Positions 2,900 to 28,341 of a stretch of DNA of 64,000 bases are shown piece after piece. The stretch is from contig JAEZTF010000007.1 in NCBI GenBank assembly GCA_023443725.1, positions 103,846-167,845 of the forward strand, written 5' to 3'. Below the pieces are notes generated by a model. It ran no database searches, was not told the origin of the DNA, and saw only the letters and a program-made list of their open reading frames with translations. How positions within the stretch are numbered: the stretch's first letter is position 1; each line of letters begins with the position of its first letter. The DNA comes from Candidatus Parcubacteria bacterium (lineage in GTDB: Bacteria; Patescibacteriota; Microgenomatia; UBA12405). The translations under genes and the position numbers were made by a program.

Positions 2900-4837
2900 A
2901 TGAAAAGAATTACTAACCTAATAAAACTTTTTTTTCTTTTTCTCTTTCTTGCCACTCCCCTAATTTTTACTTTTTTCAATTCTGAACTATTTGAACTTCC
3001 TAAAATGTATTTTGTTTATATGATAACTATCATAATAACCACTCTACATTTGACTAACTGGTCATTAGGAAAGGTTGCTTTATATAAAAAGACTTTTTTA
3101 AATATACCAATATTCTTATTTTTAATCAGTCAAATTATATCAACTTTTATATCTATCGACCCTCATACTTCATTTTTTGGTTATTATTCTCGTTTAAATG
3201 GTGGTTTACTCCCACTAATATCCTTTATTACTCTATATTTTATTTTGCCTAATTATAGTGACTCAAAGTTCAATAAAAAAATTATAAATACTGTTCTCCT
3301 TTCAGGCCTATTAGTCTCAATTTACGGCATAGCCCAACATTTTGGTGCTGATAAAAATCTTTGGGTTCAAGATGTTCAATCACGAGTCTTCTCGACTCTC
3401 GGCCAACCCAATTGGTTAGCTGCTTTTTTAGTTATTCTCATTCCTTTTTCTATTCATAAGTTTCTAGAATCAAAAAATTTTATTCATAAGTCTTATTACT
3501 TACTACTTACTATTAGCTATTACCTAACTATTCTTTTTACTAAATCTAAATCTGGCATTATTGCCTGTGTTTCTTCTTTATTTATATATTTTATTTTTAA
3601 GTTATTTTCTGACATTAAAAATAAATTTTTATCCATAAATTTAAAATCATATTTTATATTTTTTGTTTTAATAGTCCTATCTTTATTAATTTCCAATCCT
3701 ATCAAAGATAAACTATTTCCTAAGAAATTTACTCCCACTACTACAGAGTTACAAACTGAAAAACTGAACATAACTCCAAGTGAAGACATTCGTAAAATCG
3801 TTTGGCATGGAGCCTTTGACCTATGGAAACAATATCCAATATTTGGAACCGGTGTTGAAACATTTGCCTATTCATACTATTGGACCCGTCCAATTGAACA
3901 TAACCTTACCTCAGAATGGGAGTTTCTTTATAACAAAGCCCACAACGAATATCTCAATTTCTTAGCTACTACTGGAATTGTTGGCATTATTGCTTACCTT
4001 TTTCTAATTATTACTATTCTTATCAAAACCTTCAGAGACAAACCAACTTTTTGTGCTATTTTAGCTTTACTAATCACCAATTTAGTCGGTTTTTCAGTAG
4101 TTACTACTTCTTTATTATTTTTTCTCCTACCAATTTTAGTCATCAACTACAAACCATCAACCAAAGAGCTAAAACCAAAAAAATATTTGATTATTCCCAT
4201 TTTATTAATATCTATCTATCTAATTTCTAAAAATATAAATTTCTACACCGCTGATATTTTCTACGCTAAATCAATTAGTTTTGATCAAAATTCAAATTAT
4301 CAGACTTCATATAAATTAATCAGCCAAAGTTTAGATTTAAGACCAAACGAACCAGAATATTTAACTCAATCAGCCATTCTAGAATCAAAATTAAGTATTA
4401 TTACTAAAGAAAATATTTATCAAGACAGTGCTATTAAACATATTGATCAAGCCATTAAAATTTCTCCTGCCAATACTAGTATTTGGAAACAAAGAGCCCA
4501 AGTATTTTATTATTTATCCGCCATCGATAAACAATATTTTCAAGAATCAATCAATTCACTTTTACAAGTTATTACTCTTGCTCCAACTGACGCTAAAAAC
4601 TTTTTTACTATCGGACAATTTTTAGAATCAGCCAATTTAGTTGATCAATCTATTCCTTATTATCAAAAAGCCGTTGAATTAAAATCCAATTATGATCACG
4701 CTTATTTTGCCCTAGGTCAAATTTATTTTTCTCAAAAAAAATACGATCTAACTAAACAAAATCTAGAATTAACTCTCAAATACGCCCCCACCAACACTGA
4801 TGCACAAGAAATTTTAAAAAAAATTCCTATTAAATAA
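2900..4837 (+). CDS. O-antigen ligase (Wzy_C/WaaL)-like polytopic membrane protein with C-terminal TPR repeats
   Basis: About 12 TM segments, the Wzy_C-type HNEYLNFLATTGIVGIIAYL motif, and a TPR-like C-terminal region (YYQKAVELKSNYDHAYFALGQIYF). Confidence 0.65.
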   Translation: MKRITNLIKLFFLFLFLATPLIFTFFNSELFELPKMYFVYMITIIITTLHLTNWSLGKVALYKKTFLNIPIFLFLISQIISTFISIDPHTSFFGYYSRLNGGLLPLISFITLYFILPNYSDSKFNKKIINTVLLSGLLVSIYGIAQHFGADKNLWVQDVQSRVFSTLGQPNWLAAFLVILIPFSIHKFLESKNFIHKSYYLLLTISYYLTILFTKSKSGIIACVSSLFIYFIFKLFSDIKNKFLSINLKSYFIFFVLIVLSLLISNPIKDKLFPKKFTPTTTELQTEKLNITPSEDIRKIVWHGAFDLWKQYPIFGTGVETFAYSYYWTRPIEHNLTSEWEFLYNKAHNEYLNFLATTGIVGIIAYLFLIITILIKTFRDKPTFCAILALLITNLVGFSVVTTSLLFFLLPILVINYKPSTKELKPKKYLIIPILLISIYLISKNINFYTADIFYAKSISFDQNSNYQTSYKLISQSLDLRPNEPEYLTQSAILESKLSIITKENIYQDSAIKHIDQAIKISPANTSIWKQRAQVFYYLSAIDKQYFQESINSLLQVITLAPTDAKNFFTIGQFLESANLVDQSIPYYQKAVELKSNYDHAYFALGQIYFSQKKYDLTKQNLELTLKYAPTNTDAQEILKKIPIK

Positions 4838-16132: not shown

Positions 16133-17008
16133 ATGATTAAAAAAGCTGTTATAGCCGCTGCTGGCCGCGGAACTCGTTTTCTTCCTGTCGTTAAAACATA
16201 CCCCAAAGAACTTATTGCTGTTTTAGAAAAACCAAATATTCAATATTTAGTTGAAGAAGCCATTGGTGCTGGTGTTACCGAAATTGCCATCGTTCATCGA
16301 ACTGGTGAAGATTCAATTGAAAAATATTTCACTCCAGATCAAGATCTTGAGGACTATCTTATCAAAAATAATAAACTTAGTTATTTAGATAGCCTTAAAG
16401 CTATTTGGTCAAAAGCTAAAATTACTTTTATTGCTCAACCTCTTAATCTTCCTTACGGTAATGGTTCTCCCCTTTTAGCTGCAAAAAACTTTATTGATGG
16501 TCAAGATTTTATTTATATGTTTGGTGATGATTTAACTTTAGAACCAGTTCCCGGACAATTCTTGTCTAGAATGATTGCTACATATGAAAAATATCAACCA
16601 GCTGAAGTTATCGCTGTCAAAGATGTTGGCCGTGAAGAAATTGTTCGCTATGGTTCTGCTCAATATATGAATGATTCACAATATCCTAACCGTATTTCAG
16701 CTATGTTAGAAAAACTTCCGGCCGATCAAGCTCCTTCTACTTTTGCTCAAGGTGGTCGTTTCGTAGTTTCTGCTAAAGTTATTTCTATTTTAGAATCACA
16801 AGAGCTTTCTCGAGATAATGAACTTTGGTTTGCTGACGCTAGCAACACCATGGCCAAAAATGATGTCGTTATGACTCAAGCTTTTGAAGGTGAAGAAGAT
16901 TGGGTCACTACTGGTGATCCTCTTCGTTGGCTCAAAGCTAATATATTGTTAGCTATAAAATATTCTCCATACAAAGACGACCTTCGTGAATTTTTAAAAA
17001 CTTTATAA
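16133..17008 (+). CDS. galU: UTP--glucose-1-phosphate uridylyltransferase
   Basis: KAVIAAAGRGTRFLPVVKTYPKELIAVLEKPNIQYLVEEA matches the GalU N-terminus. Confidence 0.85.
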   Translation: MIKKAVIAAAGRGTRFLPVVKTYPKELIAVLEKPNIQYLVEEAIGAGVTEIAIVHRTGEDSIEKYFTPDQDLEDYLIKNNKLSYLDSLKAIWSKAKITFIAQPLNLPYGNGSPLLAAKNFIDGQDFIYMFGDDLTLEPVPGQFLSRMIATYEKYQPAEVIAVKDVGREEIVRYGSAQYMNDSQYPNRISAMLEKLPADQAPSTFAQGGRFVVSAKVISILESQELSRDNELWFADASNTMAKNDVVMTQAFEGEEDWVTTGDPLRWLKANILLAIKYSPYKDDLREFLKTL

Positions 17009-17025
17009 TAAAAATTTACCGAGAA

Positions 17026-17068
17026 TTCATTATTATGATGGACTCTCGGTATTTTTTTTAGTCTATTT
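17026..17068 (+). terminator. rho-independent terminator of galU
   Basis: TACCGAGA...TCTCGGTA hairpin followed by T8. Confidence 0.7.
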
Positions 17069-17078
17069 CTATCCTATA

Positions 17079-17119
17079 ATCTTGACAAAGTGACATTTTT
17101 ATGCTAGTATTTTAGTTGA
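17079..17119 (+). promoter_or_regulatory. sigma70-like promoter (TTGACA-17-TAGTAT) preceded by the 20-nt repeat TATCCTATAATCTTGACAAA, copy 1
   Basis: -35 at 17091-17096 and -10 at 17114-17119 with 17-nt spacing. An identical 20-mer recurs at 17873-17892. Confidence 0.6.
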
Positions 17120-17203
17120 ATTAATAAAAATAAATCTTAAAAAGCTTAAGACAAATTTTTATTAAAGTACCTTAACAGTTTTAGTGAATAAAAAGCTTTT
17201 TAT

Positions 17204-17250
17204 AAGCTTGCTACTTGGAAATCATTTATTGGTTTCCAGCTACCAAGCTT
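17204..17250 (+). promoter_or_regulatory. 5' leader hairpin, copy 1 (AAGCTTGCTACTTGGAAA-loop-TTTCCAGCTACCAAGCTT)
   Basis: 18-bp imperfect stem with an 11-nt loop TCATTTATTGG. Homologous to 18040-18086 with compensatory changes. Confidence 0.55.
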
Positions 17251-17305
17251 ATAGAAAGAAGCATTGGATAACAGAAAATAAAAAAATAGAAGGAGAATCA
17301 CAATT

Positions 17306-17749
17306 ATGGAAAACAAGAATCAAGTTTCAACAGACACTTCCAGCCACGGAATTCACTACCAAGCAAAACCTCGAACCGTCCTCGTGTGGATGGTGTTGGG
17401 TTTCTTCGCCCTGATGCTCATTACCGCCGTCATCTGTAACCTGTACTATGGTTACCAATATGATCTGGCAAGAGCAAAGGAAGGAGAACAAGTAGTACTT
17501 TCATTGAATGAGCCATTTATGGTTATCGGCCTCGGGCTGTTGATCTATGGTATCATCGCGGCTTATACCGCAATGTCTTACCACAATGGTAAGATTGAGA
17601 TCAAGGAGAATACTTCCAAATTTGGAAAAGGTCTCTTTTTGGTCTACATTTCCACATGGAATGTAATTATTCCATTGGTTATGGGCTTCGCTATCTCCTT
17701 GGCTGATTACCTTGAATGGACAATTTCAATCATATTAAACATTCACTAA
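17306..17749 (+). CDS. small 3-TM membrane protein, hypothetical (GC-rich, about 43%)
   Basis: GAAGGAG lies 10 nt upstream. Three hydrophobic helices. Composition differs strongly from the flanks. No domain recognised. Confidence 0.55.
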   Translation: MENKNQVSTDTSSHGIHYQAKPRTVLVWMVLGFFALMLITAVICNLYYGYQYDLARAKEGEQVVLSLNEPFMVIGLGLLIYGIIAAYTAMSYHNGKIEIKENTSKFGKGLFLVYISTWNVIIPLVMGFAISLADYLEWTISIILNIH

Positions 17750-17762
17750 GCTGCCCTGAAAA

Positions 17763-17862
17763 GAGGCTGGGATCATTCGTATGAGTTTGTAAAAAGTTTT
17801 GTTGACAATCTGATTGTCACACTACAATTTACTCTTTCATACGAACCCCAGCCTCCTTTTTT
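17763..17862 (+). terminator. long hairpin terminator (GAGGCTGGG...CCCAGCCTC plus T-run) with an internal TGACAATC/GATTGTCA palindrome
   Basis: Outer 9-bp and inner roughly 10-bp stems followed by TTTTTT. The loop holds a perfect 8-bp inverted repeat at 17803-17819. Confidence 0.6.
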
Positions 17863-17872
17863 ATCTCAACAC

Positions 17873-17913
17873 TATCCTATAATCTTGACAAATCGCCTAT
17901 TTTAGGCTATAAT
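17873..17913 (+). promoter_or_regulatory. sigma70-like promoter (TTGACA-17-TATAAT) preceded by the 20-nt repeat, copy 2
   Basis: -35 at 17885-17890 and -10 at 17908-17913. Identical 20-mer to 17079-17098. Confidence 0.65.
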
Positions 17914-18039
17914 CCCCTCGATACTTAAAAAGTATCAAATTTTAACAAAGTAAAACTAAAAGAATCAAAAATTGCTTTTGGTTAAAAGTTTTACAGCACG
18001 TTAAAAATCTGTAGAAGTTAGAAGACTAACCTTAAAAGT

Positions 18040-18086
18040 AAGTCTGTTATTTGGAAACTATTTATTAGTTTCCAGTTATCAGACTT
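18040..18086 (+). promoter_or_regulatory. 5' leader hairpin, copy 2 (AAGTCTGTTATTTGGAAA-loop-TTTCCAGTTATCAGACTT)
   Basis: Same architecture as 17204-17250. The outer stem differs (AGCTTG to AGTCTG) with compensatory changes on the 3' arm, and the internal mismatches fall at the same positions. Confidence 0.55.
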
Positions 18087-18170
18087 ACCTAAAAGGTAAA
18101 GTTTCTGTTGATATATATTTCCCCTTTATAACAGGCAAAACCTGATTTTATAGAAAGGAGGCGACACAAT

Positions 18171-18908
18171 ATGACGTCTCAGGCACACTGTAAAGGGTGT
18201 GGCCATTTTCTCTCTCGTGATGACCAAAGTAAAAAAGATGGCTACTGTCAAAAGTGCCGACTATCTATACTTTCAGGTCATAAGAACTCAAATAAAAAAA
18301 TGGAGGAAAAGAAAATGAGTACCATGAGTAATACCCAAAAATGGGTTATCGGCATCATTGTTGGGCTAGTTATCCTGACTGTAGGAATTCCCACCTTGAT
18401 CGCCGGAGGTCGTTTCGTAACCAATTCTGTGATCATTCCGGTATGGAATTGGGGGTTGGGTGTCAAAGCTACAACGCAAAACAACGCTGCCGTCGATACA
18501 CCCAAAACCGCTGCATCCAATGCAACTGCGCCCGCAGTACCAGCTGCAACATCTGCACCTGCAGTCATCGACAGTAATGCCGATACCACCGGTATGGTGA
18601 CAGAACAGAACTATGTTCCGCATCCCCGTCGCTATGAAGAGACCGGAATCGAAGGCACCAAGACATGGGAAAACCTTGTCGTCAATGACGATGAATACCT
18701 TGTTGTTGGTGGCGTGATCGTAAATGGAATCAAAGATGGTGTCTACCAAGGTTACGGCCCCGGTACATATACTGTTACGGTAACCAACGGCTTCATTTCC
18801 GTCGTCGATGACGATTGGGGTGATGAAGAATTCGATTTTCGTGTCGACCAAGCGATCCAATATGGTTGGGCACATGCTCATCTTAGCCGTGGAGTAATCC
18901 CCAACTAA
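18171..18908 (+). CDS. zinc-ribbon / single-TM / extracytoplasmic-domain protein, hypothetical (GC-rich, about 48%)
   Basis: AAAGGAGG lies 9 nt upstream. N-terminal CKGCGH...CQKC zinc ribbon, TM helix WVIGIIVGLVILTVGIPTLIAGG, an Ala/Pro/Thr-rich linker, then a 100-aa C-terminal domain. Anti-sigma-like topology. Many overlapping spurious ORFs on both strands reflect the high GC. Confidence 0.55.
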   Translation: MTSQAHCKGCGHFLSRDDQSKKDGYCQKCRLSILSGHKNSNKKMEEKKMSTMSNTQKWVIGIIVGLVILTVGIPTLIAGGRFVTNSVIIPVWNWGLGVKATTQNNAAVDTPKTAASNATAPAVPAATSAPAVIDSNADTTGMVTEQNYVPHPRRYEETGIEGTKTWENLVVNDDEYLVVGGVIVNGIKDGVYQGYGPGTYTVTVTNGFISVVDDDWGDEEFDFRVDQAIQYGWAHAHLSRGVIPN

Positions 18909-19070
18909 CTTCTACAGAAGAAGGGTCATGTACTTAAATGTACATAGTTGATTATGAATATGTTTTTGTAAGCGCTTGCTTACTAAAAACCTCTATTTAT
19001 ATTCAACTCCCTTTCTCTTATACCGATACACTCGGTACTGACGAGTCCCATTAGGACGAAAAGAGAAATT

Positions 19071-19952
19071 ATGAAAACTAAAAAACCATTAATTACTGTC
19101 TACATGCCAGTTTTTAATGCCGCCAAATTTTTAGACGAGTCAATTCAAAGTATTCTTAACCAAACTTTTTCTGATTTCGAGTTTATTATTATCGATGACG
19201 CTTCTACTGACAATTCTTGGAAAATTATTAAATCGTATGCTAAATCTGATAAACGTATTATTGCTATAAAAAATCATATCAATCTTGGAGTTAGTTTAAC
19301 CTCAAATATTGCTATATCCTACGCTCGCGGTAAATTTCTGGCTCGTATGGACGCTGATGATATCTCAGTTTCTAACCGTTTTGAAAAACAAATCAACTTT
19401 TTTAAAAAGCATTCTCAAGTTGTTGCTCTTGGTGGACAATGTTTTGTTATTGATGAAAATAATCAAAATATTGGAAACAAAAACTTCCCTACCAATTTCA
19501 AAAAATTATCCAAAATGATTTTTTGGGCAGTTCCAATTCAACAACCATCAATGATGGTAAATCTTAAATTATTACCTAAAAAATTCGTTTGGTATTCCCC
19601 CAACAAAACTTCTGCTGAAGAAATCGATTTAATGTTTCGATTCATGCTTTATGGACAAATCAATAATTTACCAGATTACTTGCTTTACTATAGACATTTA
19701 AATACCAGTTTGTCTCATCAAAATCCAAAAAAAACTTTCAACTTAACCATTAAAAGTCGACTAGGTGCTGTTAAGATGGGATTTAAACCAACTCTCCCTG
19801 CTATTTTATTAAACATTTGCCAAATTGTTGTTATTTCTATACTTCCAAATTCTGTGATAAATCAAATCTGGTCATTTGTTCGTGGTATTAATAAAACCCC
19901 AACATCTAAACTACAGTATAATTCTCTTAATGAAACTGTTATCAAGGCTTAA
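19071..19952 (+). CDS. family-2 glycosyltransferase (GT-A fold)
   Basis: ITVYMPVFNAAKFLDESIQSILNQTFSDFEFIIIDDASTDNS with a DDA/DxD motif. Confidence 0.8.
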   Translation: MKTKKPLITVYMPVFNAAKFLDESIQSILNQTFSDFEFIIIDDASTDNSWKIIKSYAKSDKRIIAIKNHINLGVSLTSNIAISYARGKFLARMDADDISVSNRFEKQINFFKKHSQVVALGGQCFVIDENNQNIGNKNFPTNFKKLSKMIFWAVPIQQPSMMVNLKLLPKKFVWYSPNKTSAEEIDLMFRFMLYGQINNLPDYLLYYRHLNTSLSHQNPKKTFNLTIKSRLGAVKMGFKPTLPAILLNICQIVVISILPNSVINQIWSFVRGINKTPTSKLQYNSLNETVIKA

Positions 19953-26901: not shown

Positions 26902-27852
26902 TCAATCTTTTGAATAGGTAATTTTTAGACCACATGATGGACAAACACTAGCCCCATCTTTTAATTCAGTACCACAAGGACAAAAACTTTTTCCATCTCT
27001 AATCTCCGGTTTTACTGATATTTCAGATTTAGAAAATAACTTATCAAAACTACTTTCTAATTGATCACTATTAAGACCACCATGGTTTCCTCCTTCTATT
27101 TGATAACCTCTCACTTTCATCATTCTTTCTAAAAATGCTCCAGTGTGAATTGAATTATTTTCAGTAAAACCACCAAATCTAACTTTTATATCTTCTAATG
27201 TTTCATTGATTACAGTTTCTATTTCTTTTTTTCTACAAATATCTTTGCCTTGTCTAACCACATTCCAAACTTCTTCAACACCAAAAACACTTTCACAAAA
27301 ATTCCATAATTCTTCTTCGTTCTTAATACCAAACTTTAAACCCAATGCTTGTTCTCTCAAATCCTCCACTTGTTTTATCTCTCCAACAGAATCACCTCCA
27401 AATTCAATTATCTTATTTGCCATTAACCACATTTCGTTTGGTTTATTAAAAAGTGGTATACCTCGACAATTAATTTTTATTTGGTTACTATCTTCAACAA
27501 TACCAACTACAATCCTACCGTCTTCATAATCACTTCTTCCTCCACTTGGACTTATCCAAAAAATATATTTACATCCACTCTTTGCCAATTTCCAAATATT
27601 CTTCATTCCCTCATATTCAGCTTTTCCAATTTCACTATTCAGTTCACAACGAAAATTTGGATTACCGTTAATATCAAAACTTAATTCGTAAGGATTAACT
27701 CTTTTTTCAATCTCTTCTACTCCATTTTCCAAAAAAACTCCAGCCAGTTCAGACAAATCTCCATGTTGTCTTTCTAAAGTAATTAAACGCTGTTCTTTTC
27801 CCATATTCTTCTGCTCGGAAGTTTCAGGCTCGGGCTTTAACCGTTGCGGCAC
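26902..27852 (-). CDS. hypothetical protein with C-terminal zinc ribbon
   Basis: 316 aa. C-terminus CPCGTELKDGASVCPSCG. No other recognisable domain. Confidence 0.4.
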   Translation of the reverse strand: MPQRLKPEPETSEQKNMGKEQRLITLERQHGDLSELAGVFLENGVEEIEKRVNPYELSFDINGNPNFRCELNSEIGKAEYEGMKNIWKLAKSGCKYIFWISPSGGRSDYEDGRIVVGIVEDSNQIKINCRGIPLFNKPNEMWLMANKIIEFGGDSVGEIKQVEDLREQALGLKFGIKNEEELWNFCESVFGVEEVWNVVRQGKDICRKKEIETVINETLEDIKVRFGGFTENNSIHTGAFLERMMKVRGYQIEGGNHGGLNSDQLESSFDKLFSKSEISVKPEIRDGKSFCPCGTELKDGASVCPSCGLKITYSKD

Positions 27853-27888
27853 AGCTTGGGAATTACACCCAATTCAAGAAAATTAAAT

Positions 27889-28341
27889 TTACTTCTCTTC
27901 AGCCCTCCTAGCCTTCAAAAACAAATAATCAGACAACCTATTAAAATATTCCAAAACTTTTTCATCTTGTTTTTCTTGATTATCCAAAGCTACTATTCTT
28001 CTCTCTAATCTTCTAGCTACAGTTCTTGCCCAATTTAAATTTAAAGCTTTTTTGTTTTTAAATCTTAAAAATTGTTTTAGCTCAGACAATTCTTTTTCTA
28101 ATTTGTCAATTTCTTTTTCTAAAAATAAAACTTTTTTACCAATATCAACTTCACTATTACATCCAATTTTACCCATTAATTGAAACAAATCATCAACTAT
28201 TAATTCTTCTCCTCCAATCAATTCTAATATTGATTGGAGTTCATCAATAGTACCCACAACTTCAACCAACAAAGAGTCTTTGGAAACTCTTTTGTTTCCA
28301 CAGATTGTTTGACCTTTATCTCCTTGTTTGGTTGTAATCAT
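27889..28341 (-). CDS. ATP:cob(I)alamin adenosyltransferase, PduO/MMAB type
   Basis: N-terminal TKQGDKGQT...SKDSLLVEVVGTIDELQS matches the PduO-family signature (T-GDxGxT ... RVEAxGT-DEL-S). Confidence 0.65.
   Translation of the reverse strand: MITTKQGDKGQTICGNKRVSKDSLLVEVVGTIDELQSILELIGGEELIVDDLFQLMGKIGCNSEVDIGKKVLFLEKEIDKLEKELSELKQFLRFKNKKALNLNWARTVARRLERRIVALDNQEKQDEKVLEYFNRLSDYLFLKARRAEEK

Follow-up and report, generated by a model that had tools for sequence, protein, structure and literature searches.

The window analysed here is a 64,000 nt stretch of the genome of a Candidatus Parcubacteria bacterium, in which two consecutive genes, gene 1 and gene 2, are located between a galU-like gene and a gene for a family 2 glycosyltransferase (GT2). 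Each of the two belongs to a cassette that consists of a predicted promoter, a leader, an open reading frame (ORF) and a terminal hairpin. An initial annotation had described a duplicated promoter-leader module (an identical 20-mer, a promoter, hairpins and a strong Shine-Dalgarno (SD) sequence), and every one of these features was present. Two further elements in the same interval had gone unnoticed: a 14 bp helix around gene 2, formed by 18008-18021 and 18905-18918, and a hammerhead ribozyme at 19012-19068. The coordinates are collected in Table 1. Loci outside the window are designated by L numbers and their proteins by four-digit P numbers.

The minimum free energy (MFE) was −67.2 kcal/mol for the gene 2 leader (z = −6.7 against shuffled sequence) and −43.0 kcal/mol for the gene 1 leader (z = −4.9). 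The helices P1 and P2 were analysed by using an alignment of 24 gene 2 type leaders (alignment A1). P1, with the consensus GAUACUyAAAAAGUAUC at the predicted +1, is almost invariant in the 24 loci, its loop included, and its closing pair alone covaries. P2 is more variable: in P2a, pair 40-88 occurs as AU 13 times and as GC nine times, and in P2b compensating changes were found in five of the seven pairs. Over P1 and P2 together 92% of the cells are paired and ten pairs carry double changes, as compared with 34-48% paired cells in slid controls. The joining strands AACAAAGU and ACGUUAAAAAU are conserved among the gene 2 type leaders as well.

The third helix, P3, is the 47 nt hairpin of the initial annotation and occurs in both leader types; its core TTGGAAAnnATTTATTnGTTTCCAG is found twice in the window, at 17215 and 18051 (chance expectation 0.01). 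An alignment of 14 copies bore out the earlier claim that the outer stems compensate at the RNA level. Compensating changes are present in ten of the 23 pairs, a UA/UA element between two 1×1 mismatches is invariant, and the core contains 25 G·U cells and one A·C cell, as would be expected of sense-strand RNA and not of a DNA palindrome. Some loci have a hairpin of another class in place of P3. A leader peptide or upstream ORF in P3 was considered and rejected: a GTG at 17184 has no SD sequence, P3 of the gene 2 type has stop codons in all frames (by eye), and the apparently conserved peptide is accounted for by the nucleotide conservation of the hairpin. The SD sequences are AAGGAG at 17290-17295 (gene 1) and AAGGAGG at 18155-18161 (gene 2). 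Pairing of the latter with an upstream anti-SD, UUUCCCCUUU, is predicted for leader 2 of the window; the anti-SD is conserved in close relatives alone, not throughout the clade. As judged by covariation, then, the leaders are structured RNAs. Searches of Rfam 15 gave no match to them at the gathering thresholds (whole window), and at E ≤ 10 over 16500-19500 they returned hairpin-like miRNA models and a weak match to the hammerhead model HH3; the architecture is new in that it is absent from Rfam.

Such a leader could be a regulatory sensor, that is, a riboswitch, a protein-binding autoregulatory leader or an attenuator, in which binding at P1, P3 or the joining strands would alter access to the SD sequence or the fate of the transcript. 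The invariance of P1 in 24 loci, the invariant UA/UA of P3, the conserved joining strands and the pairing of the SD sequence by RNAfold are all what a sensor would be expected to display, and this role would be compatible with, and not exclusive of, the stabilising one proposed below. We nevertheless regard it as rather unlikely. Neither a terminator nor a terminator/antiterminator alternative of the attenuator kind was seen in the leaders, no Rfam family was hit even at E ≤ 10, and some sub-clades lack P3 and the anti-SD. Moreover, the same leader precedes unrelated ORFs, some of them without a zinc ribbon (L030, L054, L061), which makes it less likely that the product regulates its own leader or that a ligand is specific to the product. 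The functional RNA leader that had been proposed is thus upheld as a covarying RNA structure, but not as an attenuator or a gene-specific ligand switch.

Directly after P2 lies a segment of 9-15 nt that pairs with the region of the stop codon. In the window the resulting helix is perfect (14 of 14 bp) and encloses gene 2, and it is present in both the MFE and the centroid fold of the full 1106 nt mRNA. The segment occupies the same position in 17 non-identical loci, among which at least nine compensating pairs of arm sequences were found; this evidence is evolutionary, not mutational. Examples are GTAGAAGTTA/TAACTTCTAC, TTTGCAAGACTAA/TTAGTCTTGCAAA, TTTGCGAGTTA/TAACTCGCAAA, CGTGTGGTTA/TAACCACACG, AGTTGTTTGTTATTT/AAATAACAAACAACT and CCCGTAGAGTTTA/TAAGCTCTACGGG, and GTGTGGTTA is one more of the arm sequences. 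The best helix score of the cognate arms had a mean of 11.1 and a minimum of 8.5 over the 17 loci; with shuffled tails the mean was 6.2, and 3.4% reached a score of 9. The stop codon lies inside the 3′ arm in 13 of the 17 loci. Gene 1 type leaders have a long-range pairing of 11 bp in L001 (TTAGTGAATGA/TCGTTCACTAA) and in L069 (CAATTTAGTGA/TCACTAAATTG), and its probable counterpart in the window is short (Table 1). The helix is not a general trait of genes with this promoter: a search in eight other such genes was significant in one alone, L018, where an A-rich tract pairs with the T-run of the terminator, and was not significant in the other seven.

The two cassettes differ at their 3′ ends. 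Gene 1 is followed by a 104 nt hairpin (17758-17861; −42.9 kcal/mol, z = −6.8) and a U-run. The initial annotation had put its length at 100 nt, and the palindrome reported within it, GACAATC/GATTGTC, is present; the base of the hairpin, GAGGCTGGG/CCCAGCCTC, is conserved in L001. The branched hairpin after gene 2 has no U-run, so that read-through is expected. Equivalent long hairpins are found in the other loci. Where no GT2 gene follows, the hairpin is a GGGCCGAG...CUCGGCCC stem with a U-run, a terminator; in the window and nine other loci it lacks the U-run and is followed by a minimal type III hammerhead directly before the GT2 gene.

The hammerhead of the window consists of stem III (UUUCUCUU/AAGAGAAA), stem I (UACCGA/UCGGUA) and stem II (GUCC/GGAC) around the core CUGACGA (19038-19044) and GAA (19058-19060), which is intact in nine of the ten loci. 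U19019 pairs with A19061 (A15.1-U16.1) and A19020 is H17, with predicted cleavage between 19020 and 19021; this feature, too, holds in nine of ten loci. RNAfold alone recovered the three-way junction, in which stems I and II are closed by loops and stem III is open. Over the ten loci 87% of the cells are paired, eight of 17 pairs show double changes and stem III occurs in eight different sequences. The covariation score was 0.405 versus 0.109 in shuffles, and none of 500 shuffles reached the observed value. The Rfam model RF00008/HH3 matched with 19.8 bits (E = 0.84), below its gathering threshold of 48.5; the stems and loops are much shorter than those of the viroid and satellite members of the Rfam seed. 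The GT2 gene is probably co-transcribed with the cassette and released by the hammerhead. Only 2 nt separate the 3′ strand of stem III from the GT2 start codon, and the start region of that gene might therefore be freed by cleavage as well. In L047, which has three tandem cassettes with promoters at 1810, about 2150 and 3414, a hammerhead (about 3300-3360) follows the second cassette, which encodes a zinc-ribbon protein, and is itself followed by another cassette promoter and not by a GT2 gene.

Table 1. Features of the two cassettes and the adjoining genes; positions refer to the window.
Feature	Position	Strand	Remarks
Upstream anchor gene	16133-17008	+	galU-like, NTP_transferase
Promoter 1	17070-17110	+	upstream element TATCCTATAATC; −35 TTGACA (17082-17087); 17 nt spacer; −10 TAGTAT (17105-17110)
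Leader 1, 5′-proximal hairpin	17121-17165	+	apical loop AAAGC within UCUUAA/UUAAGA; from repeat and MFE fold
Leader 1, probable 5′ arm	17181-17186	+	TTAGTG, pairs with CACTAA at 17744-17749 (holds stop codon); weak, 6 bp
P3 of leader 1	17196-17258	+	core 17203-17251; outer stem, two 1×1 mismatches around invariant UA/UA, inner stem UUGG...CCAG
Gene 1	17306-17749	+	147 aa; three hydrophobic segments; 41.7% GC
Intrinsic terminator of cassette 1	17758-17867	+	long terminal hairpin and U-run
Promoter 2	17873-17913	+	same upstream element; −35 TTGACA (17885); 17 nt spacer; −10 TATAAT (17908-17913)
P1	17920-17936	+	hairpin GAUACUUAAAAAGUAUC; predicted 5′ end of transcript
P2	17940-18006	+	composite hairpin: closing helix UUUAAC/GUUAAA, GUAAAAC/GUUUUAC, inner hairpin UCAAAA-AUUGC-UUUUGG
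5′ arm of ORF-bracketing helix	18008-18021	+	UCUGUAGAAGUUAG
P3 of leader 2	18020-18106	+	core 18039-18087
P4	18117-18162	+	predicted hairpin; UUUCCCCUUU pairs with SD region (AAGGAGG, 18155-18161); RNAfold alone
Gene 2	18171-18908	+	245 aa; CxxC..CxxC zinc ribbon, transmembrane helix, Ala/Thr/Pro-rich disordered linker, ~95 aa beta-rich C-terminal domain; 47.0% GC
3′ arm of ORF-bracketing helix	18905-18918	+	CUAACUUCUACAGA; includes stop codon UAA (18906-18908)
Terminal hairpin after gene 2	18921-19013	+	branched; no U-run
Type III hammerhead ribozyme	19012-19068	+	ends 2 nt before GT2 ATG (19071)
Downstream anchor gene	19071-19952	+	GT2

The 20-mer TATCCTATAATCTTGACAAA starts at 17070 and 17873; with up to three mismatches allowed, no further match was found in the 64 kb window (chance expectation 0.02). 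Each copy overlaps the −35 box of a σ70-type promoter. Promoter 1 (TTGACA-17-TAGTAT) agrees with the consensus at ten of 12 positions and has a TG-extended −10 box, and promoter 2 (TTGACA-17-TATAAT) agrees at all 12. An 18 nt core, TCCTATAATCTTGACAAA, was scanned against 185,579 species-representative genomes and viral contigs (596 Gb), and 38 loci were obtained. In 21 of these a −10 hexamer lies 16-17 nt past TTGACA (exactly 17 nt in 20 of the 21), preceded by the 14-18-mer of the promoter 1 element. The 21 are mostly metagenome-assembled genomes (MAGs) of Patescibacteria type, named Shapirobacteria, Microgenomates, Levyibacteriota or "Patescibacteria group", together with several "binchicken" MAGs labelled Gammaproteobacteria or Pseudomonadales that are syntenic with the window. 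The other 17 matches are in unrelated organisms, have no −10 box and are about as many as expected of a random 18-mer in 596 Gb. Because of the −10 box in 21 of 38 loci and the many unrelated genes downstream, the 20-mer is read as an extended −35/upstream promoter element in general use in the clade; its proposed role as a cassette boundary or recombination site was ruled out on the same evidence.

At other Patescibacteria loci this promoter mostly precedes long leaders and ORFs for lipoproteins, secreted or membrane proteins, the GC content of which is 0.48-0.58, as compared with 0.37-0.46 in the surroundings. L014, L018, L028, L032, L033, L034 and L037 have the promoter ahead of unrelated envelope genes with long leaders and with a GC content 10-20 points higher in the ORF than around it. 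The promoter class and GC-rich envelope genes seem to be linked throughout the clade. Literature searches for promoter motifs or hammerheads in Patescibacteria gave nothing relevant. A C-rich discriminator (CCCCTC or TCCCCCG) is located between −10 and +1 in the window (17914-17919) and in every leader of the gene 2 type. A GC-rich discriminator is typical of promoters under stringent control, for example rrn P1, and growth-rate control of the gene 2 type promoters is conceivable. The exact 18-mer is also found at 3615-3632 of L046, an IMG/VR contig (43 kb, 31% GC), with TATAAT 17 nt downstream and small ORFs following; L046 may be a phage of these bacteria that borrows the strong-promoter consensus of its host.

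Further copies of the leader and of the 18 nt core of the 20-mer, which the initial annotation had called for, were found outside the window by the scans of genomes and, for the leader, of metagenomes, where a search for the promoter together with P1 of the gene 2 leader added 20 loci. The promoter and leader lie between the galU-like and GT2 genes in L001, L002, L011, L013 and L030, and several further loci retain one of the two flanking genes; flank identities to the window range from 55 to 96%. The flanking proteins of L001 share 96% and 91% identity with those of the window, and its gene 2 shares 63%. At the DNA level the flanks are 85-89% identical, and 17258-17844 has no similarity: gene 1 is replaced by an unrelated ORF, while promoter, leader and terminator are retained. 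Unrelated ORFs also occupy the gene 1 slot of L055 and L069, and in L011, L013, L030 and L044 promoter and leader precede an ORF that is not a detectable homologue. Exchange may be limited to the C-terminal domain. In alignment A2 the N-terminal halves of P0004, P0006 and P0017 are about 90-100% identical to the window protein and the C-terminal domains are different; in L069 the DNA homology stops at 18562, the end of the Ala/Pro linker, and in L071 the replaced segment (18545-18898) ends just before the 3′ arm. Genes 1 and 2 are thus replaced independently. The synteny of promoter and leader in relatives and the replaced or mosaic ORFs indicate that the galU-GT2 slot is ancestral and that its contents turn over.

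The 19 distinct cassette ORFs (about 25 loci) have 42-57% GC and 0.40-0.76 GC at third codon positions (GC3). Most encode a zinc ribbon, a transmembrane helix and an extracellular domain, and some have a signal peptide instead; at least six types of C-terminal domain without mutual similarity were distinguished (tblastn of gene 2 and by eye). Tandem promoter copies, two or three, are common in the clade (L044, L047, L050, L055, L058, L063, L065, L069). What the first slot then encodes is either a small protein with several transmembrane segments, preceded by a leader of the gene 1 type, or a soluble, conserved protein of ~64 aa. The latter, found as the first cassette of L021, L047, L050, L058 and L065 (60-66 aa, motif GFIPxT...G.YLTLEEV), has the same promoter, a short unstructured leader, ordinary GC content and no Pfam match. 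In L002 (2459-4357) and L021 (1983-3897) the galU-like gene is tandemly duplicated directly upstream of the cassette. Among the leader-bearing MAGs, a phylum-level name was found for L010 alone (Candidatus Shapirobacteria; Microgenomates group, Patescibacteria). The MAGs of L002/L042, L011, L013, L016, L021, L030, L032, L037 and L044, entitled "uncultured Gammaproteobacteria" or "Pseudomonadales", carry the 18-mer promoter, and L002, L011, L013, L021, L030 and L044 also have galU/GT2 synteny or a leader in common with the window and L010; the record titles are probably unreliable.

The initial annotation had seen in the pair a recently acquired mobile or defence module (toxin/immunity, abortive infection or an anti-sigma-like sensor) on a GC-rich islet. 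The composition is indeed atypical (GC3 0.50 and 0.43, at most 0.37 elsewhere in the window), the products are small membrane proteins of no assigned function, and weak sub-threshold holin and XhlA matches were obtained over the transmembrane region. This origin is largely refuted, however, and we consider it very improbable. The position is syntenic in all relatives, although their flanks have no more than 55-96% identity, the two genes are replaced independently, and neither an integrase nor a transposase nor any other mobility gene was found near the locus. Searches of phage, plasmid and viral-contig collections gave no match to the cassettes, and a phage or plasmid origin was rejected for this reason. 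PADLOC, PHROGs and Pfam searches of both proteins, and Pfam searches of nine other cassette proteins, yielded sub-threshold zinc-ribbon and transmembrane noise alone, so that toxin/immunity and abortive infection functions find nothing to stand on. As for an anti-sigma factor, the motif of gene 2 is CxxC-x17-CxxC and not the HxxxCxxC of zinc-binding anti-sigma factors (ZAS), and neither a zf-HC2 Pfam match in gene 2 nor a sigma gene in the neighbourhood was found.

The repeats might alternatively act on the DNA, with the palindromes as operators and the arms as inverted repeats for site-specific inversion (phase variation) or as anchors of cassette exchange. The arms are mostly perfect inverted repeats around a variable segment, P1 is a perfect palindrome at +1, and the breakpoints adjoin conserved elements, namely position 18899 before the 3′ arm (L071) and 17258 after P3 (L001); the conserved elements probably do serve as recombination homology. 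As the principal function this is nonetheless improbable: with 25 G·U cells and one A·C cell, P3 is stable as sense RNA alone; the ORF is in the orientation of the promoter in every complete cassette; no recombinase was found in the flanks; and all of the elements lie in one transcription unit, with the 3′ arm in register with the stop codon. An inverton was rejected because one orientation alone was seen and no integrase is present. Integron attC cassettes were rejected as well, since the hairpins lie 5′ of the ORFs in promoter-driven leaders and no integrase is nearby; attC boxes were checked by eye only.

Searches among 5.8 billion proteins detected one homologue of gene 1 (P0021, 76% identity), and the first-slot ORF of L063 is also homologous; 18 homologues of gene 2 were detected, which, wherever their context could be seen, are flanked by the galU-like NTP-transferase gene and the GT2 gene. 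The proposed topology of gene 2 (zinc ribbon, transmembrane helix, extracytoplasmic domain) agrees with an AlphaFold2 model from a 14-sequence alignment (mean predicted local distance difference test score (pLDDT) 66.8), in which the zinc ribbon is confident, residues 54-72 form the transmembrane helix, the linker (78-150) is disordered and the beta-rich C-terminal domain has a pLDDT of 76-89. Comparison with solved structures gave no convincing match to gene 2. Its C-terminal domain defines a family without annotation or Pfam entry, which comprises about 150 clusters (50% identity) and is usually located at the C terminus of single-pass membrane proteins in many bacteria. In P0141 (693 aa) and P0022 (330 aa), apparently of GC-rich bacteria, the domain occurs fused to a Ser/Thr kinase and a transmembrane segment, and as a tandem pair, which hints at a family of extracytoplasmic binding or sensor domains. 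The neighbours of the cassettes are the galU-like gene, the GT2 gene, a gene for an 849 aa polytopic protein and, in L069, a PMT-family gene. These neighbours, with the Ser/Thr/Pro/Ala-rich linkers, suggest that the cassette protein would be a glycosylated envelope protein. In L069 (2904-4295, − strand) and L067 (1124-2725, − strand) a gene of the PMT family (PF02366, protein-mannosyltransferase-like) replaces hammerhead and GT2 gene after the cassette, as would suit a glycosylated cassette protein.

The reading that we judge probable is that the module serves as an expression platform that stabilises and insulates the mRNAs of abundant, diversifying surface proteins, and that the two copies in the window are tandem instances within one clade. 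It is based on the likeness to the hbs mRNA and to known bacterial hammerheads that flank single genes. From its 5′ end the cassette consists of a near-consensus σ70 promoter with a conserved upstream extension, a hairpin at the predicted 5′ terminus of the transcript, the helices P2 and P3, the 9-15 nt segment pairing with the stop-codon region, a strong SD sequence and a long terminal hairpin that is either a terminator or followed by the hammerhead. The long-range helix, or clamp, would close one loop around P3, the SD sequence and the entire ORF and isolate the conserved expression signals from whichever ORF is inserted, and 5′-terminal hairpin, clamp and terminal hairpin together would shield both ends of the mRNA from ribonucleases. 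Because the stop codon is usually inside the 3′ arm, a terminating ribosome would open the clamp transiently, and decay could be coupled to translation. The predicted outcome is high, portable expression of small membrane-anchored or secreted proteins, which would diversify fast by recombination as the whole ORF or the C-terminal domain is replaced, and the hammerhead would cut the abundant cassette mRNA apart from that of the downstream glycosyltransferase operon.

Among documented systems the hbs mRNA of Bacillus subtilis comes closest. It has two 5′ hairpins followed by a 14 nt segment that pairs with the 3′ untranslated region (UTR) directly before the terminator, and a strong SD sequence (Braun, Durand and Condon 2017, PMC5737220). 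Compensatory mutants showed that the pairing restricts cleavage of the leader by RNase Y and slows 3′ decay (PMC5737220). Like hbs, the present cassettes combine a strong SD sequence with 5′ hairpins and, directly after these, 10-15 nt whose complement lies past the stop codon and ahead of the terminal hairpin or terminator; the hbs product is an abundant protein. The cassettes differ in that the 3′ arm usually holds the stop codon itself, in the longer leader (230-360 nt) with the extra helices P2 and P3, and in the conservation of the scaffold over dozens of genomes with natural compensating changes and interchangeable unrelated ORFs. Protection from particular RNases would apply here by analogy.

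In the icaR mRNA of Staphylococcus aureus the 3′ UTR pairs with the SD sequence, by which translation is blocked and RNase III cleavage triggered (PMC3868564). Here, too, the two UTRs of one bacterial mRNA base-pair, but the 5′ arm is located about 160 nt upstream of the SD sequence, which is therefore not the partner of the bracketing helix. Stabilising hairpins at the 5′ terminus are known from ompA, aprE and ermC. The hairpins of both leaders similarly begin no more than a few nucleotides from the predicted +1 (P1 at 17920; leader 1 hairpin at 17121). In P1, however, the sequence is conserved in addition to the shape, which would point to more than steric protection of the end. Hammerheads of bacteria have been described next to genes of polycistronic transcripts, for the most part of prophages (Perreault et al. 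2011, PMC3088659). The present one resembles them in its canonical core between two co-oriented genes, where cleavage would give single-gene mRNAs and a defined downstream 5′ end; it differs in its chromosomal, conserved, housekeeping-like neighbourhood in the candidate phyla radiation, in its single copy and in being a minimal type III form, with short loops and a score under the gathering threshold of Rfam. The synthetic insulator RiboJ is a further analogue.

Several points weigh against an expression platform of this kind. High abundance, stabilisation and ribozyme cleavage are predictions from the DNA sequence. The bracketing helix alone cannot separate an RNA function from a DNA function (three G·U cells versus two A·C cells). 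P3 is absent in the sub-clade of L013, L050, L065 and L066, where a short hairpin takes its place. Two hammerhead copies deviate in the core (CCGAUGA in L030, U-A at 15.1-16.1 in L011) and may be inactive. The near-invariance of P1 and the invariant UA/UA of P3 suggest a specific binding partner, which would be superfluous in a model of stability alone. Finally, the GC enrichment of the cassettes fits neither plain codon adaptation nor a single transfer event.

The GC-rich pair had been noted with about 43 and 48% GC, close to the values in Table 1, and the GC3 of both genes exceeds that of the about 60 other ORFs of at least 100 aa in the window, which range from 0.11 to 0.37. High-expression codon bias as such was rejected as the full explanation: GC3 is 0.18-0.22 in the genes for ribosomal proteins L11, L1, L10 and L7/L12. 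At four-fold degenerate sites the C/G fractions are 0.40/0.15 in the cassettes, 0.10/0.09 in the flanking genes and 0.19/0.01 in the ribosomal-protein genes. The third-position bias of the cassettes is thus mainly towards C, to which the ribosomal-protein genes also lean, and extends to codons ending in G, which the latter avoid. High GC content of the ORFs that follow this class of promoter, in genomes otherwise rich in AT, is a compositional anomaly. The vls cassettes of Borrelia have about 49% GC in a genome of 28.6%, an enrichment attributed to recombination-linked selection (PMC11499132). The likeness to vlsE/vls lies in GC-rich variable surface genes in an AT-rich genome (here ORFs of 42-57% versus 30-38%) that change by recombination. 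Unlike vls, the present loci have no strong positive GC skew (C exceeds G at third positions); no silent cassette array was seen within 10 kb of any of them, and variation was observed between strains and not within a clone.

A wider reading, which is possible but clearly less likely than the expression platform, is that the galU-GT2 slot would be a clade-wide expression site of Patescibacteria for variable surface proteins. Its conserved RNA scaffold, made up of the strong promoter, the clamp from leader to stop codon that terminating ribosomes open, and the ribozyme as a punctuation mark, would take up many unrelated GC-rich cassettes for extracellular domains by recombination, the RNA elements doubling as recombination anchors, and the GC enrichment would be kept by exchange or by selection on the mRNA. 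If true, it would be a previously undescribed analogue of the expression sites of antigenic variation, built on mRNA architecture.

On the platform reading, the hbs-type clamp between 5′ and 3′ UTR, so far a single experimental case, would be extended to an evolutionarily conserved family with extensive natural covariation. A hammerhead would have its place in a chromosomal operon of bacteria of the candidate phyla, as a natural insulator that separates genes. These bacteria are uncultivated and likely depend on a host, and among their envelope proteins those of the cassettes probably rank first in strength of expression and in rate of change. As the cassettes adjoin glycosylation genes (galU-like, GT2 and, in L069, PMT family), their products are candidates for host attachment, phage reception and strain recognition. 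Promoter, leader, clamp and ribozyme could provide a parts list for genetic tools in Patescibacteria.

Apart from the cassettes, the aptamer of an adenosylcobalamin (AdoCbl-II, cobalamin) riboswitch was identified in the window at 27818-27895 (− strand; Rfam 40.6 bits, gathering threshold 36.5). It adjoins Cob_adeno_trans-like and ribonucleotide reductase genes (Pfam context from L001).

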